Below are positions 7,576 through 34,780 of a DNA stretch of 37,082 nt, in pieces. The notes below the pieces were generated by a model. That model was not told where the DNA came from. It saw nothing but the letters and a program-made list of their open reading frames with translations, and searched no databases. Location of the stretch: IMG/VR virus record IMGVR_UViG_3300031952_004642; one strand, 5' to 3'. Position numbers and translations under genes: made by a program. Positions within the stretch are counted from its first letter, which is position 1. Each line of letters opens with the position of its first letter. The DNA is from a virus (lineage: Duplodnaviria; Heunggongvirae; Uroviricota; Caudoviricetes).

Positions 7576-10500
7576 TTACAGCGATTTCGACACCGCCTTG
7601 AATCCGAGACCAGCTATCGCTATCACGAGTATGACAAGAGCAAGAGCGATGCCTATCGACATCAGCGGGTCGAAAGTGGGCCCAATGAAATTCAGCATGC
7701 CCGAACGCATGCAAGTCAGCATGCCGACCGTCGTTGACTGGTCACATGCAATACCACCAGTCGGCGAAGGTATGCAAACCTTCTCAGCCGCATCACACAG
7801 ATAATCACATGTCATCCTCTGGGCAACACATGTACCAGCCCCACCACAAGTCCAGCTCTCAAGCGTATACGCATCAAGGCACTGATTGCCACCATAACAT
7901 TCGGAATCAAAACGACAGACATCTGTAGAGGTCTCATCAATGCAACCCACGTCATCATCACACAAATCAACCGCCAGACATGTCTCCTGAGAATATTCAC
8001 AAACACATTCATCCACATTACACCCAGTAAGGCTGTAGAACACACCACCCTGACAATAGGAAGGAGCACAGTCAACACTGGACTGGCACGGCAGCTCATC
8101 GATTGAATATGGAAGAGTAAATGTCGTTGATGTGCTTATGGTATCTTCATGAATCAGAACTTGTTGAGTCGCATTATACAGCCAAGCGCACCCAGTCAAT
8201 TGAAGGAAAAGTGAAAGATTCACTGGATATGTCCCATTTATAACGATAAAAGTGAACGGGAAAGTCGTAGCAACAGTAGTTGGCCTGATGGTATCCATTC
8301 CAGATGCAGTCACACTGACACGACCTCCAGTAATCGGAACATGACCCTTAGACTGGACATTCACGACAACATTCGCACCCTTCGTGAGAGTGTAAGATTT
8401 CTCAGTAAGGTAACTATATCCACCAGCGACAGCCTCAACAAACACATCTCCTGTATGGATAGCAGTCTTGTATCCTGTCTTCGATACTATGACGAGATAT
8501 TCTCTCGGATTACCAGTCGGCGTATACGTAATCTTACAGTTATCATTATCAACAGATGCCGAAAACGTGACACCAGACAAAGGCGAAACAACGAGCAGAA
8601 TCTTTCCATAACTATCAGTCGTGTAGACCATCCCATCAACGCTAACGGAAGCCCCAGATATCGGATTCTCGCTCTCATCAAAAACATAAATCGGCAATAT
8701 GTAAGACTGAGCAAGCAAGTTGACATAGAATTTCATATTATCACATGAAACAGGAACATCATAAGTAGTCTGGGTATTGATTGGCAGATAATCCATCGAA
8801 GTAAAGGTTATATCGTTCTGGAGACGCTTCGTCGTGTGCAGCAGAATAGATGACCCCTGAGACGATTCAGTGTATCCATCATTGGCGACATTCACCACTG
8901 TAACATTGGCCCCTATCGTAGTCCCTGTCAGCGGGTCTGTGTATGTCGAATAAACGATGAGCGGCAAAAACTCCTCAGTCGCAAAGTATATTCCAGTCGA
9001 GTAAAGCGGAGTTCCCCATAAGATGTAATTATAATTCGATGTCTTGCGCTCATAGGCATAAGCATATCTTCCAGTGATTGCAATCTTATCGGTGAGGCGG
9101 ATGTCCTCACTCAATGAAAAGTTCAGTAAATAGTATGGCTGCTGCGGAGTATACGTATCGAAATCGCTCGTCATCGTCCCATAGAATCCCTCCGGCTCAT
9201 CCATGCCATTATCGGGCCTTGCATACTTGAAATCATCTCCCTCACTACGGATGTAAGTAAAACCATAGTAATCCGAAACAAATCCCGAAGAAATCGTATC
9301 ATTGAAGTAATCTCCAAGACCAGCACCTACATCCAATTCCGCCATTATCCTGAAATGATTATCATCGTAAACGATTCCACGGGCCTTATAAAAACCAGTC
9401 CCACCACAACCAGTCCCCCAGAATTTAATCGCAGGTGTCGTATGATGAAGAGTGCCATTCAGATAATAGAAATCTATATGCAAAGTCCTGAGAGCCCACG
9501 TGAAAAATCCGCAACCGCCTGTACCATGACCAACACCATTAGCCCTAAGGATGGCTATCAATGGCTGGCTCGTATCCTTATGATAGAATCCAAGCGGATA
9601 ATACCGAGTGCAACTTGAAGAAGTCCCGCCACAGCCAATCGTAGTCTTAGTCCAGACAGGCGATAGAGCAGTTGGAGACGTATAAGACCAGAGCTTGGCA
9701 TTGGTGTCTCCATTCGTAGTGATTACATAATACTTGTTGTCTGGCGCATAGAACATTATATCATATGGCATCGGCTCATAAGTAGCGTTCAGGTAATTCC
9801 AGTTCGGAAGGTCATTTCCACCATAATCTGGGTCATTGAGCGGGAAATGCACAGTCTGCTGATAGGTCAACGGTGACCCAGTGAAACCATTATCAGACCA
9901 ATAGATATTAAGACCACCACCAACTACCCACAAATTCGTATTCCAAGCAAGGATGGCACAATGCTGCTCATTCTCCTGACAGGCGACCTTCGGGTCGTAC
10001 CAATGATAACCAAGAAGCGAACCAAGGTAATCTGTATAATAGACAGGAGTCCCAGCAGTATATTCCTCGGCTGGCGTATAAGCTGGAGGCTCAAAACAAT
10101 CCTCGAACTCAACCCTCGGGTCTAACCCGCCACCCAAGTCACTGCACGTCCTATATTTCAGGTAATCTGCACATACACTCCAGTCATTGCAAGACCAGTT
10201 CGGCTCATATCCCCAAATAGTCATGTTATAATCTGTATAATCATAATGGACAGAACCACCGAAAGCACCAGAAGCGCCAGTACAGACAAGATAAGTCATA
10301 AGCCAATATTCAGTGTCAGCAGTAAGAGTCAGCTCATCACTATAAGGTGTTGATGAAGAAAGCAAAGAAACCGAATCACTACCAGTATCCCAAAGATAAA
10401 CACTCCTCGAACACGAGGTCACAGCATAACCAGAATCATGGTCTTCCATATCTGTGACACTCACATTCACAAATCCAGAAGCCATGGAATTGAACGGCCT

Positions 10501-11427: not shown

Positions 11428-11983
11428 ATGAATGAAAATACCGAAATCCCAATACCCACACCAGCCGCACAAGAACCAATGCAAAAACGGATAATCGATA
11501 TGAGGAACGTCAACTTCGAAGTAGACCCAATGGTCGCACACAAGATTCAGACACAAATGAACGACAATCCCAGATTCGCCCAGACCATCAACACAAACAT
11601 CACGAAGCTGTTCTACGAATATCTCATGTACAAGGTCAAGATGCGTGAAAACCTGAATATCGCCATAAAAGGAGAAACTCGTTCAGGAAAGTCCACCGTC
11701 GCAATTTCGCTTGGCAATTTCATAGCATCCATGACCAGAGTCCCGTATGGCCCATTCAACATCTGCGCAAACGAGAGCGAGTACTACACAAAAGTAAGAA
11801 AAGCCAAGTTCAATGAACTATATCATATAGACGAACAAAAAGAATCGAAATTCGGAGCTGGGTCTTTCAGGGAAGAGATGGGAATTATGGATATGGACTT
11901 CATCATAAATCAAAAGAAGACCACCAGAAATCCAGAAATGAAACAGGCAATACCTGATTCACTGGAGCATTATAGCCAAGCAA
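11428..11983 (+). CDS. P-loop ATPase N-extein (exons 11428-11892, 11930-11937, 11968-11983); putative packaging/extrusion ATPase
   Basis: Walker A GETRSGKS, Walker B YHIDE. After removing two BHB introns it reads ...REEMGIMD-IQN-IIAKQ directly into the intein Cys1. Confidence 0.85.
11893..11929 (+). other. BHB-type intron 1 (37 nt, relaxed motif)
   Basis: 5' bulge ATA (11891-93), 3' bulge AAA (11928-30), central helix ATGG/CCAG with one mismatch, intron stem TGG-A-CTTC/GAAG-A-CCA. Removal gives GAT|ATC and the frame shift needed. Confidence 0.75.
11938..11967 (+). other. BHB intron 2 (30 nt, canonical)
   Basis: Exon stem AAT/ATT, central helix CCAG/CTGG, bulges AAA and AGC, intron stem TGAA-A-CAGG/CCTG-A-TTCA. 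Removes an in-frame TGA and gives CAG AA|C ATT (QNI). Confidence 0.9.
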
Positions 11984-12316
11984 TGCTTGACCTCGAACAC
12001 GAAAATATTCGTGCTGGACAAATCCTCATCTCATTTCACATCAAAGACCCTATCCGAGCTTGCTCAAATAGGTTCATTCAACGTGCTTGCGGCTGACCCG
12101 ATATGGCTGGCAAAAGGTTGGCTGAAAACTGAACCTAAAAAAGCAATTATAACATTCGCTGGGAAGAAGGCAATCAGGAAGCTGAAAACGGAAAATGGTA
12201 AACAAGTGAGCGGGAGCAACGAACATAAGCTTTACGTGAAAAGAGGAAAGAAGATTTTAAAGCTCACGATAGGCGAGATAAAATTAGGAGATGAATTGGT
12301 TTGCCTACCAAGATAG
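11984..12316 (+). mobile_element. Split intein N-half (110 aa, ends at its own stop codon)
   Basis: Starts CLTSNTKIFVLD (block A); block B-like KLKTENGKQVSGSNEHKLYV...IGEIKLGDELV; stop TAG at 12314-16. Confidence 0.85.
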
Positions 12317-13026
12317 ATATATCAAAAAAAAAGTTGGAACGACTTTACTGGAAAGAAGGTCTCTCCATCAATAAAATATCCAAAAGACTTTCGCTCAACA
12401 AGAATACTATTTATGACATGATGGTTCAAAAGCACATCCAACGAAGAAACTATTCGAATGCACTCCGTTTTTCCATCAAAGAACCAAACAAGCAAACATT
12501 AGCTTATCTCGCTGGTGTACTTGCTGGCGATGGTAATATAAATTCTAACGGAACCTTTGAATTGCAGACAATCGACCACGATTTCGCAGTTCACACATTT
12601 AATCGGCTTGATTCAATCGCCCCAGCCAAATTCATAAAACTAAAGAGAAAAACATCCGCTGGCAACCCAGTCTTCTCTATCAGATTGCATCGCAGAAAAT
12701 TCAATGACTTACTACAGAAAGTAAAGATTACGAATATAACGCACAAGAACTGGTTCATAAATGGTATTATCGATTCAGAAGCTTGTGTAAATAATTCTAA
12801 CCGAACTGTATCTATTTACATGGACAACAAGAACCTGCTGATACAAATTCAGAGTTATCTCAAATCCCAAAAAATTCATTCACGATTATATTGCAGAAAT
12901 GGATTACACTATTCACTTGTAATCATCAGGAAAGATTCAATTCTAAAATTCCATAAATATTTTCGCTTCTCAATCAAACGCAAAGAAGATAAACTTAAAC
13001 AAATCATATTAAATTATAGGAGGTAA
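12301..13026 (+). mobile_element. Free-standing LAGLIDADG homing endonuclease with N-terminal HTH
   Basis: LAYLAGVLAGDG and FINGIIDSEA motifs; separate frame from both intein halves; TTG start after GGAG. Confidence 0.9.
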
Positions 13027-13030
13027 TCAT

Positions 13031-13153
13031 ATGCATGAAATAGCAACGACCAAAATCACAGACATTCAGGAAGGCAAACCACAGGATACCTACGATATCG
13101 GCGTAAAGGATTGGCATAATTTCGTCCTTTCCAACGGTATACTGAGTTTAAAT
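13031..13153 (+). mobile_element. Split intein C-half (41 aa)
   Basis: GGAGGT RBS then ATG: MHEIATTKITDIQEGKPQDTYDIGVKDWHNFVLSNGILSLN|C. Blocks F/G present, terminal Asn, +1 Cys. Missed by the ORF track (too short). Confidence 0.9.
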
Positions 13154-13925
13154 TGTGTCCATACCATAGCCATCTGACGGCGGTAAAATGGATATACCCC
13201 TCGGACTTCATAGGATTTTTGCATAACGCACAAACCCGAAGAAAGCGAGGAACTCAGTATATGGCTTAAAGCAGAATGAGAAAATTCATCCCGCTGGCTA
13301 AGAAACCTACGGAAAAGACCTAAAGAACAAACTCATCAGATGCCTCGTTTACGATGTACGCCGCACAGTGATGGGCATGGCCACACCACTCGGCTACTTA
13401 ATCATCCCTAAGTTGGCTGAAGAAAAATATCAGCAGATGAATGAGAAAATCTGGTCGAATTACAGGCTCAACAACAAATATAAGCTCAACAGAACAGATT
13501 TTGACAGCATGTTAGAAGAAATGTATGAACAGAAAAAAGATACGTGGATTCAAAAAGAGCAGGACAGAGACTTCGGAACTCATCATGAAGAGAGATTCAA
13601 GCTCGGCGTATGGCTTGGTGAGCAGAAACAATTCATCGAGATAGACCACAAAGCTAAACAAAGGATTCTTGCGAGACAAATTTTCCGTGATTTGACCGAA
13701 GGTGAAATCGATGAGGTTGTCGAGACCGCACGAATGGGATTAAAGCTGGCAGACATCGAGAAGATGAAACAGAAACACACCAAAGATGCACGAAAAGAAG
13801 ACGAGACACTCGAAGAAGAAGAACGAGCCGAAATCGTAGCAAAAGCTGAACAAACTACCGAAAATACTGAAAAGGTTTCTGAAAACGATGAACAGGCTCC
13901 CGATGAAACCGAAAAACAGTCCTAA
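13154..13925 (+). CDS. ATPase C-extein (exons 13154-13167, 13188-13211, 13244-13268, 13302-13925)
   Basis: After removing three BHB introns: CVHTI-WIYPSDFI-ARNSVYGL-ETYGKDLKNKLIRCLVYDVRRTVMGMATPLGYLIIPK..., continuous with ORF 13368..13925. Confidence 0.85.
13168..13187 (+). other. BHB intron 3 (20 nt, canonical)
   Basis: Exon stem GTCCA/TGGAT, central helix TACC/GGTA, bulges ATA and AAA, intron stem GCC/GGC. Removal gives AT|A TGG and deletes a TGA. Confidence 0.92.
13212..13243 (+). other. BHB intron 4 (32 nt)
   Basis: Central helix CTTC/GAAG, bulges ATA and AAA, intron stem GG-A-TTT..TGC/GCA..AAA-C-CC. Removal gives AT|A GCG AGG AAC (IARN). Confidence 0.88.
13269..13301 (+). other. BHB intron 5 (33 nt)
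   Basis: Central helix GGCU/GGCU (G.U, G-C, C-G, U.G), bulges UAA and AAG, intron stem AGC..AUGAG/UUCAU..GCU. Removal gives TTA|GAA and deletes a TAA. Confidence 0.82.
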
Positions 13926-33168: not shown

Positions 33169-33902
33169 AACAACACACCATTCAATTGCATCTTAATATT
33201 GGTGAACATGCTTTTTAACTTTAACATGAAAGTACGATTCCATCCCATAGTCGTATTATAATGGATTACTCCCAGTTCTGGTAATGTATCAAGATTAGGA
33301 ATATACATACCTTTCCATTCAGGAACACCATAATATTTCCTCAGAAAATCATACATAGCGAGATTAGTCTCCCTACCAGTCTCAGCAAAGACCACTTCAC
33401 GAAGTTTTGGAATATCCTTGAGCATCTGACCATCCTCAGAGTACTTCGGAAAGATACGAAGAACGTAAGTTCTATAATTAAAGCGAATCGGAACCAGCCG
33501 AAAATTTTCATCCGCATGTGTATTCCCCACAATTTCACAAACCTCAGAAAAAGTTCCCTTCTGGCAAAATATCACATGGTAGTTCGAATATTCATCTCCA
33601 ACGATATTATAATCAGCATCACCAGACCGCAAAATAACAGCAGTGCCCATATCATAGTTTTTCTGGCAAAGCTTCACATCTCTCTTAACAACACTGTACA
33701 TACAATCATCATAATCTAAAAACAAGCAATGAGAATTCAAGTCATCACCAACACAACGAGACGTTATGCCCATTGTTGAAATCTGTGGCGAAAGGGCCAG
33801 CAACGAATAATAGTGCAACCATGAAAACAGTTTAACCTGCAATTTTATCGTGCTATTATTAACAGAAAGACGAAACACATCACGGACAACTATCTTTGGC
33901 AT
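33159..33902 (-). CDS. AEP-superfamily primase/polymerase-like protein
   Basis: Motif I hFLDYD, motif II S...NYHV, motif III-like HAD; adjacent to the helicase module. Confidence 0.55.
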   Translation of the reverse strand: MPKIVVRDVFRLSVNNSTIKLQVKLFSWLHYYSLLALSPQISTMGITSRCVGDDLNSHCLFLDYDDCMYSVVKRDVKLCQKNYDMGTAVILRSGDADYNIVGDEYSNYHVIFCQKGTFSEVCEIVGNTHADENFRLVPIRFNYRTYVLRIFPKYSEDGQMLKDIPKLREVVFAETGRETNLAMYDFLRKYYGVPEWKGMYIPNLDTLPELGVIHYNTTMGWNRTFMLKLKSMFTNIKMQLNGVLLCL

Positions 33903-34780
33903 GGTTCATTCTCCAGTTTTTTGACTTGTGAATTCCGTCCATCTACATTATGAGGAAAGCCATTTCGTAGTCGACAAAAAAACCGATTTAAAGCATGCCT
34001 TGGAACAGGGAAATCGATTCGTGATTTATAGAATTGTTTCTGCAAAAACTTCAACTGAATCATCCAAACAGTTCTACTCGAAAATGAAGTCTTTGTATGA
34101 CAAGAAAAACAAAGAGAAACAAGATTACTAAAAGCATGGTTTTTTTTATTGTAATCAATATGATGGACAGGAAGCCTCAACTCATTTTCAACACTACCAC
34201 ATATCAAACATCGCCTACCATAAAAATCACGAACACTCTCTTTCAAATGTTCAGTAAAACCAACCGAATAAGGCTCAAAAGAAGAACCACCATTCCATTT
34301 CGGACTTCGTGAACCACGAACAGAATAACCTTTATTTAAACAACAAATTCCAAGTTCATTAGCCTTGCATTGTACAGCCACATTCGAACGACAAGGAAAG
34401 CGCAATAGAAAAAATTCAACACCTCTTATCGGATATACTTTTTTCAAATAATTTCCCTCTTCATAAGACCACAACTTCTGCCGCTTTAAACCAAGTTTCC
34501 AAACTTTTTTATGGACGATATGCATTGGCACTTGTGGAAACTTTAAACGAAACGCCTTAGACCCACCCACAAAATAAACCTTTTTCAGATAGAGAATTTT
34601 TTCTTTCGACCAATATGACATATATTTTACACCAAGTAAATGTGCACGAGTAATAACAGCCAACTTGCTTCTCATAGGAAACATTTTCTGGAAAGCCATC
34701 GTACCACCTTCTGGATAAACACATCTAAGAAAATCCTCTTCTTCCATACTCCACATTTTACCCATCCAATCCACCTGCAA
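33890..34780 (-). mobile_element. HNH endonuclease with N-terminal WSxEE helical repeats
   Basis: CLIC...VHHIDYNKKN....NLVSLC..CH; three WSxE(E/K)...YL...YP repeats; visibly AT-rich. Confidence 0.85.

Follow-up and report, generated by a model that had tools for sequence, protein, structure and literature searches.

Gene Organization at the ATPase Locus

The DNA considered here is a 37,082-nt stretch from an archaeal virus-like element assigned to the Caudoviricetes (IMG/VR record IMGVR_UViG_3300031952_004642), referred to at its full length as the window; between positions 11428 and 13925, its + strand carries one P-loop ATPase whose coding sequence is spread over three reading frames (Table 1). 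The frame-1 open reading frame (ORF) at 11428-12096 is the carrier of the Walker A and Walker B-like motifs. The gene is divided by a natural split intein, whose halves (IntN and IntC) enclose a free-standing homing-endonuclease gene, and it is broken at five further places; each of these breaks is a short insert associated with a motif of the bulge-helix-bulge (BHB) type and is treated below as a putative mRNA intron (i1 to i5). Beyond IntC, the conserved ATPase sequence comes as four short, frame-hopping pieces followed by an exon of 207 codons.

Table 1. Features of the ATPase locus in the window. A slash marks the predicted cut within a bulge; H is the central helix, h and h' the outer and inner helices.
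Feature	Position	Strand	Description
Exon 1 of the ATPase N-extein	11428..11892	+	155 codons; Walker A GETRSGKS, Walker B-like YHIDEQ
Putative intron 1 (i1), 37 nt	11893..11929	+	relaxed BHB: central helix 3 bp + A.G, inner 3 bp, bulges AT/A and AA/A
Micro-exon, 8 nt, ATCCAGAA	11930..11937	+	supplies the I-Q-N codons; needed for IMD-IQN-IIAKQ as in intron-less homologs
Putative intron 2 (i2), 30 nt	11938..11967	+	canonical hBHBh': H 4/4, outer 3, inner 4
Exon 3	11968..11983	+	final 16 nt of the N-extein, ..IIAKQ
Split-intein N half (IntN)	11984..12316	+	Cys1 ... LVCLPR, stop; Pfam Intein_splicing E 1.3e-3
Free-standing LAGLIDADG homing-endonuclease gene between the intein halves	12301..13026	+	other frame; Pfam LAGLIDADG_3 E 1.1e-12
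Split-intein C half (IntC)	13031..13153	+	own ATG, AGGAGG upstream, ends ...LSLN; Pfam Intein_splicing E 3.2e-4
C-extein exon CVHT-I	13154..13167	+	starts TGT (Cys)
Putative intron 3 (i3), 20 nt	13168..13187	+	textbook hBHBh': H 4/4, outer 8 bp, inner 3 bp, bulges AT/A and AA/A
C-extein exon WIYPSDFI	13188..13211	+	
Putative intron 4 (i4), 32 nt	13212..13243	+	relaxed BHB: H 4/4, inner 2, outer helix displaced
C-extein exon ARNSVYGL	13244..13268	+	
Putative intron 5 (i5), 33 nt	13269..13301	+	BHB core: H 4/4 with two G.U, inner 3, outer 1; in-frame TAA at end
Last C-extein exon	13302..13925	+	207 codons + stop

Precision of the Inserts and the Spliced Product

A first-pass annotation, made by reading the sequence alone, had placed five inserts at the positions of i1 to i5, and comparison with related loci confirms all five. 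Pairwise DNA alignment with L003, a syntenic 55.8-kb relative in which the C-extein is contiguous, yields exactly three window-specific insertions, of 20, 32 and 33 nt, corresponding to i3, i4 and i5, while IMDIQNIIAK is unbroken in L001 (76% identical) and L006, both of which are thus devoid of i1 and i2. Uninterrupted homologs such as P0004 run in a single frame through SIMDVQNILAKKCIHTIWIYPQDFISRNSDYGFESYGRDL, and the contiguous motif that the annotation had expected of intron-less homologs is present in them in the form D[IV]QNI[IL]AK.C[IV]HTIW[IV]YP.DFI.RNS.YG.E.YG[KR]D. At the i1 site, L002 and L003 have divergent inserts of 32 and 30 nt, respectively, with the same core, and at the i2 site L003 has a homologous 30-nt intron; the window and L003 therefore have two intron sites in common, IMD/IQN and IQN/IIA, at which the intron sequences have diverged and the cores are conserved.

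Removal of the five inserts and of the split intein gives, as had been anticipated, one clean frame of 391 aa with no stop codon. This product is free of gaps over all junctions when aligned with four uninterrupted homologs, and it shares 73% identity with the 393-aa ORF of L006, itself uninterrupted, with a single gap column among 360; L003, after subtraction of its own five BHB-defined inserts, likewise acquires a clean N-extein. Indels or chimeric joins created during sequencing or assembly would be a natural suspicion for a metagenome-derived contig of modest depth (14x), and the first-pass annotation had already dismissed sequencing error; this explanation can be discounted for practical purposes, since the inserts are precisely absent from homologs and the probable source run, assembled independently in Logan, gives an identical sequence over 11700-13500. 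At 20-37 nt the inserts are not homopolymer indels, homologous inserts occupy the same sites in other samples, and an artefact would not give BHB motifs in register with the reading frame.

Bulge-Helix-Bulge Geometry of the Inserts in the Window

The inserts were scored at their homology-defined boundaries with a purpose-written script, in which the 5' side of the motif is laid out as outer helix h, a 4-nt strand Ha, a 3-nt bulge and inner helix h', and the 3' side as h', a 4-nt strand Hb, a 3-nt bulge and h, with the cut falling after the second bulge nucleotide (Table 2). This cutting rule, on which the first-pass annotation relied, matches the one given for cbf5 in PMC2738675.

Table 2. Helix scores and fold stability of the five inserts; z-scores compare the RNAfold minimum free energy of each intron with 15-nt flanks with that of shuffles.
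Insert	Central helix	Outer helix (bp)	Inner helix (bp)	z
i1	3/4 (A.G mismatch)	0	3	-1.2
i2	4/4	3	4	-3.2
i3	4/4	8	3	-2.6
i4	4/4	0	2	-2.8
i5	4/4 (two G.U)	1	3	-0.1

Folded by RNAfold without constraints, all five inserts form the central helix, the inner helix and the 3-nt bulge on the 5' side; i3 attains the complete hBHBh' structure, and in i1 and i4 the outer helix forms at a displaced position. Where a junction can slide by 1-2 nt without a change in the product, the motif exists in one register only. The inner helix measures 2-4 bp throughout, and a directly adjacent outer helix of at least 2 bp is found in i2 and i3, compared with 0-1 bp in i1, i4 and i5. Two introns are strict (i2 and i3) and three are relaxed and HBh'-like (i1, i4 and i5). 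The statement of the first-pass annotation that every break is a canonical BHB motif thus holds for the core at i2-i5, with all four central pairs formed, and is slightly overstated for the three relaxed inserts. Four of the five combine a complete central helix with an inner helix of at least 2 bp, as against 0.66% of shifted control positions at homology-tied cut pairs (the family-wide controls described below), which excludes chance as the origin of the motifs.

The motifs of i1 and i2 overlap: the micro-exon at 11930-11937 supplies the central helix of i2, and the outer helix of i2 takes in the last base of i1 (11929), so that the order of splicing may matter. In the window as a whole, BHB-like motifs with outer and inner helices of at least 2 bp number 3004 on the - strand and 727 on the + strand; this roughly four-fold excess is probably an effect of G+T composition acting through G.U pairs, and such strand-skewed counts make motif scans on their own uninformative in the window.

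Distribution of the Inserts across the ATPase Family

An exhaustive phmmer search with the N-terminal ORF retrieved 121 homologs, the best of them 76% identical, and DNA was compared for L001-L005 plus 42 metagenome loci. Around 20 of 48 related metagenomic loci have at least one insert, and inserts are found in many independent assemblies and samples. The expectation that related genomes would have BHB motifs at frameshifts is borne out, such motifs being present at the relatives' own frame breaks. The database gene calls P0002, P0003, P0005-P0012, P0019, P0047 and P0058 break off or turn into odd peptides at conserved motifs; in P0002, P0003, P0007 and P0009, the call reads through introns into wrong frames and generates chimeric "hypothetical proteins", an error that runs systematically through the annotation of this virus group.

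Junctions were located from protein homology only, by means of tblastn blocks followed by selection of the gap-free cut pair that maximises the BLOSUM score, ties being kept; controls are the same tie sets shifted by 4-25 nt (n = 9,856). This procedure yields 32 non-redundant single inserts of 14-45 nt, 25 of which have a complete 4-bp central helix (4.2% of controls). When the inner helix must also reach 2 bp at a tied cut pair, 23 of the 32 inserts remain, compared with 65 of 9,856 controls (0.66%), and when the outer helix must do so as well, nine inserts remain, compared with a single control (0.01%). The cut pair of i5 is among those recovered by homology alone.

A curated table comprises 42 inserts of 16-59 nt at about 31 sites in the ATPase gene. 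The lengths of 23 of them are not multiples of three and many contain stop codons, which rules out tolerated protein insertions. The exon 4-mer Ha takes 29 different values among the 42 inserts and pairs 4/4 with the intron 4-mer Hb of its own insert in 34 cases, compared with 2.9% of cross-pairings; at the level of sequence, this pattern behaves like covariation. The bulges are A-rich (AA/A, AT/A, AA/T and AA/G), and at the one site NESE/YY, which is occupied in L002, L003, L013, L014 and L017, the inner helix is kept while its base pairs differ. The insertion sites include three at Walker A (KGE/TRS, STR/SGK and EIK/GYT) and two at Walker B (LYH/IDE and QKE/AKF), with others around the intein insertion point.

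Beyond the ATPase gene, an all-against-all junction search revealed no BHB-positive inserts, the flanking DNA of the loci being short, and a noisy scan for BHB motifs combined with ORF merging gave no convincing candidate in other genes of the window, its matches being mostly gene boundaries and antisense ORFs. No close relatives were present in IMG/VR, whether searched by single protein or by alignment, and a tight alignment-based search of GTDB genome contigs found no relative. Three loci (L027:3639-3737, L029:3608-3697 and L032:510-581) contain a different kind of insertion, a Cys-rich in-frame segment of 24-33 aa (C..C...CP.Y..C) with no BHB motif; this segment is probably no intron but a true protein insertion resembling a zinc ribbon.

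The same inserts could in principle be skipped by the ribosome, through programmed translational bypassing of the type described for T4 gene 60 and the mitochondrial byps elements, or be removed by a viral RNA-processing activity acting on the same hairpins; either seems unlikely. Every insert does have a stable hairpin right after its 5' junction, as bypassing elements do, and microhomology at the junctions is slightly above control (mean 1.4 vs 0.68 nt). Bypassing needs matched take-off and landing triplets, though, and junction identity is below 3 nt in 32 of the 42 inserts and nil in 15, which makes this explanation improbable; nor does anything known in bypassing demand a 4-bp helix between the exon and the 3' end of the intron, 3-nt A-rich bulges and the observed cut position, a geometry that is that of recognition by the archaeal tRNA-splicing endonuclease EndA. 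Five hops in one mRNA would moreover be very inefficient. As to a viral activity, the large ORFs of the window display no EndA-like, RtcB-like or other RNA-processing domain. Self-splicing group I or group II introns were also considered and rejected: their ribozyme core extends over hundreds of nucleotides and is recognisable by covariance models, whereas the inserts are too small, and Rfam gives no family in the window at gathering thresholds. A tRNA scan of the window likewise returned nothing.

Selection on the Exons

Six interruptions in one gene resemble decay at first sight, and the ATPase gene might be a dead or dying pseudogene into which small mobile, hairpin-forming insertions have settled, with no full-length protein being made. 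The exons speak against this. Between the window and L006 or L003, the proportion of synonymous differences (pS) is 0.70-0.87, close to saturation, and the proportion of non-synonymous differences (pN) 0.10-0.24; low pN with high pS also prevails in the micro-exons, and in the last exon and IntN, which lie downstream of frame-breaking inserts. For exon 1, pN is 0.098 and pS 0.70 against spliced L003; for the last exon, pN is 0.21 with saturated pS against L006; and IntN is 68% identical to its L003 counterpart, with pN 0.18 and pS 0.58. Such values point to strong purifying selection on the exons.

Taken together with the intron sites common to the window and L003, this constraint argues that alleles with introns have long been functional. 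Two sites retained across such divergence, 391 codons without stop or frameshift once inserts and intein are taken out, and the recurrence of the same pattern in about 20 loci from independent samples, in a gene with 121 homologs that is a conserved hallmark of the virus group, leave the pseudogene explanation very unlikely. Because 23 of the 42 inserts shift the frame, many enclose stop codons and the exons around them are constrained, the inserts would have to be removed before translation.

Predicted Processing by Host Enzymes

On this evidence, we consider it likely that the inserts are mRNA introns of the BHB type, cut by the tRNA-splicing endonuclease of the host and ligated by RtcB. In the transcript, the mini-introns of 20-37 nt would fold together with flanking exon bases into BHB motifs; host EndA would cut after the second nucleotide of each 3-nt bulge, and a host RtcB-type ligase would join the exons, which restores the frame and eliminates the in-frame stops. 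The resulting two polypeptides, N-extein with IntN and IntC with C-extein, would then be joined by the naturally split intein, so that production of the ATPase would call for protein splicing as well as for RNA splicing carried out by host enzymes. The large window ORFs being devoid of EndA- or RtcB-like genes, host enzymes are the likely agents. Among EndAs, solely those of the (alpha-beta)2 and epsilon2 types have been reported to cut non-canonical motifs (PMC5829648, PMC12397907). Since the outer helix is weak or displaced in the majority of motifs, we infer a host with a broad-specificity EndA of either type, and TACK archaea, Nanoarchaeota or ARMAN/DPANN-like archaea are host candidates on that basis.

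Several observations weigh against processing by this route. In the unbiased run, nine of the 32 homology-defined inserts fall short of the BHB geometry; misplaced boundaries or two adjacent introns account for several of them, and closer references resolved some, e.g., L003 6244-6279 and L002 420-452. Many family members, as well as i1 and i4, lack the outer helix or have it displaced. The introns at the LYH/IDE site have, like i1, only 3 bp and an A.G mismatch in the central helix, so that the efficiency of their cleavage is uncertain, and the fold of i5 is no more stable than shuffled sequences. Finally, translation in archaea is coupled to transcription, and ribosomes would somehow have to be kept off the unspliced mRNA.

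The inserts may also be looked at as mobile elements. It is possible, although we hold this tentatively, that mobile mini-introns specifically colonise the most conserved motifs of the ATPase (Walker A, Walker B and the intein point), at the cost of dependence on host tRNA-splicing enzymes, and that they are spread by co-conversion with neighbouring free-standing homing endonucleases ("collaborative homing") or kept because they disrupt conserved DNA that rival endonucleases or host CRISPR spacers would target. Free-standing endonuclease genes stand beside or inside intron-rich alleles in the window, L003, L011 and L018 (LAGLIDADG) and in L047 (DUF559/Vsr-like), a proximity that suggests, as a lead only, co-mobility or target-site protection; no endonuclease gene lies beside the other intron-rich loci checked. 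In L018, a LAGLIDADG_3 gene (521-1348, + strand; E 8e-8) is immediately upstream of the intron-bearing ATPase gene, as is a DUF559/Vsr-like gene in L047 (847-1593, + strand; E 3e-5).

Comparison with Known Systems

In full-text literature searches, BHB introns in mRNA were found to be reported only for cbf5 and for the 5' untranslated region (5'UTR) of Haloferax HVO_1309, and none in viral mRNAs; PMC7714728 and the reference list of PMC12397907 are in line with the first-pass annotation, which had named cbf5 as essentially the sole documented case. The cbf5 pre-mRNA intron of Crenarchaeota (Watanabe 2002, Yoshinari 2006, Yokobori 2009; PMC2738675) is the closest parallel: it is short (tens of nt), interrupts the coding sequence at a catalytic or conserved motif, mostly adopts an "unconventional" BHB with predicted cuts between the second and third bulge residues, is in-frame in some cases and not in others, and has its splicing ascribed to a hetero-oligomeric EndA (PMC2738675). 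There, however, one intron resides in one cellular gene, whereas the window has five in one viral gene and the family about 30 sites, combined with a split intein on a virus-like element; presence varies between close relatives, which suggests active gain and loss. Splicing of cbf5 has cDNA support, and the introns described here are known from DNA. In the HVO_1309 mRNA of Haloferax volcanii, the BHB intron of the 5'UTR has been demonstrated in vivo and in vitro to be processed by the tRNA-splicing endonuclease, but it is cellular, lies in a UTR and is not required for a reading frame to be restored (PMC7714728).

Short insertions in coding genes of archaeal viruses have a precedent in the 12-bp indels of rudiviruses and lipothrixviruses such as SIRV1 (Peng 2004, cited in PMC2738675 and PMC4390879), once termed "putative introns" and discussed with regard to escape from host interference (PMC2738675, PMC4390879). 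Those indels are always 12 bp and in-frame, with no BHB reported and splicing never shown, in contrast to the BHB-bounded, mostly frame-breaking inserts of 16-59 nt described here. The non-canonical tRNA and rRNA BHB introns of Thermoproteota, Nanoarchaeota and ARMAN-type archaea are likewise small, with relaxed BHB or bulge-helix-loop motifs at many positions, and are cut by (alpha-beta)2 or epsilon2 EndA (PMC5829648, PMC3488258, PMC12397907), the enzymology also predicted for the present inserts; they differ in belonging to stable RNAs, where a viral mRNA would have to be spliced before it is translated.

The organization of the intein recalls the metagenomic "fractured genes" that Dassa and colleagues reportedly described in 2009, in which split inteins have a free-standing homing-endonuclease gene between their halves. 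The likeness extends to the order of the parts, an N-extein-IntN ORF, a free-standing endonuclease ORF and an IntC-C-extein ORF with its own start; the difference is that the exteins are also interrupted by putative RNA introns here, no farther than 17 nt upstream and 14 nt downstream from the intein point.

BHB introns in coding mRNA have so far been a near-unique curiosity in the literature searched, and one viral gene would now need five BHB splicing events and protein trans-splicing, with about 30 insertion sites in its relatives that come and go between close genomes. In that case, viruses of some archaea would routinely express genes through tRNA-type splicing, which would thereby become a new dependency on the host and a possible control point, and the system would be tractable for asking how BHB introns move. 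As gene callers shatter such genes (P0002, P0003 and P0007 are examples), the database proteomes of archaeal viruses are systematically mis-annotated wherever such introns occur.

Structural Affinities of the ATPase

Sequence searches of Pfam, PHROGs and the PDB assign the ATPase to no family. An AlphaFold model of the intact homolog P0004 (pLDDT 91) has an ASCE P-loop fold followed by a helical C-terminal domain. In Foldseek, weak similarities are found to the N-domain of Zot, the STIV2 B204 packaging NTPase, RecA-like proteins, ATV ORF286, A32-like ATPases and a Nitrosopumilus spindle-shaped virus protein; based on the model, a role as a morphogenesis or packaging ATPase is plausible.

The Split Intein and Neighbouring Genes

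The junction of the intein with the N-extein had been correctly marked in the first-pass annotation (KQ^C). IntN begins with Cys at 11984 and ends at the stop codon at 12316, P0001 ending at the same place; IntC, whose ATG at 13031 follows AGGAGG, ends in ...LSLN, and the C-extein then starts with the Cys codon TGT at 13154. Both Intein_splicing matches are below the curated cut-off of Pfam (E 1.3e-3 and 3.2e-4), and that of IntC covers profile positions 117-153 of 155. Cys1, the Asn/Cys+1 junction and the separate ORFs are those of a naturally split intein with an intervening homing-endonuclease gene, and L003 has the same intein/LAGLIDADG arrangement. A search for BHB introns able to unite the three ORFs (IntN, endonuclease and IntC) in a single contiguous intein brought up no credible candidate.

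The ATPase family is an intein hot spot, with at least four intein insertion points beside the mini-intron sites. P0018 (841 aa) apparently contains three inteins, and those of other homologs, among P0013, P0014, P0021 and P0022, are inserted at G/C (after QMG or GVG), at IAK[KR]/C and at HTIW/C. Elsewhere in the window, the - strand encodes an endonuclease-like protein with three NUMOD3 motifs (1889-2758; E 7e-24) and an endonuclease-like gene with an HNH domain (33890-34780; E 5e-6), so that the element appears rich in selfish nuclease genes. On the same strand, two giant Cys-rich ORFs of 1211 and 1159 aa overlap by 139 nt (7576-7714). The upstream one ends in a hydrophobic C-terminal anchor, which makes two distinct genes probable, the second of them starting later; a weak BHB-like match at 7615-7637, within the overlap, looks like a chance occurrence.

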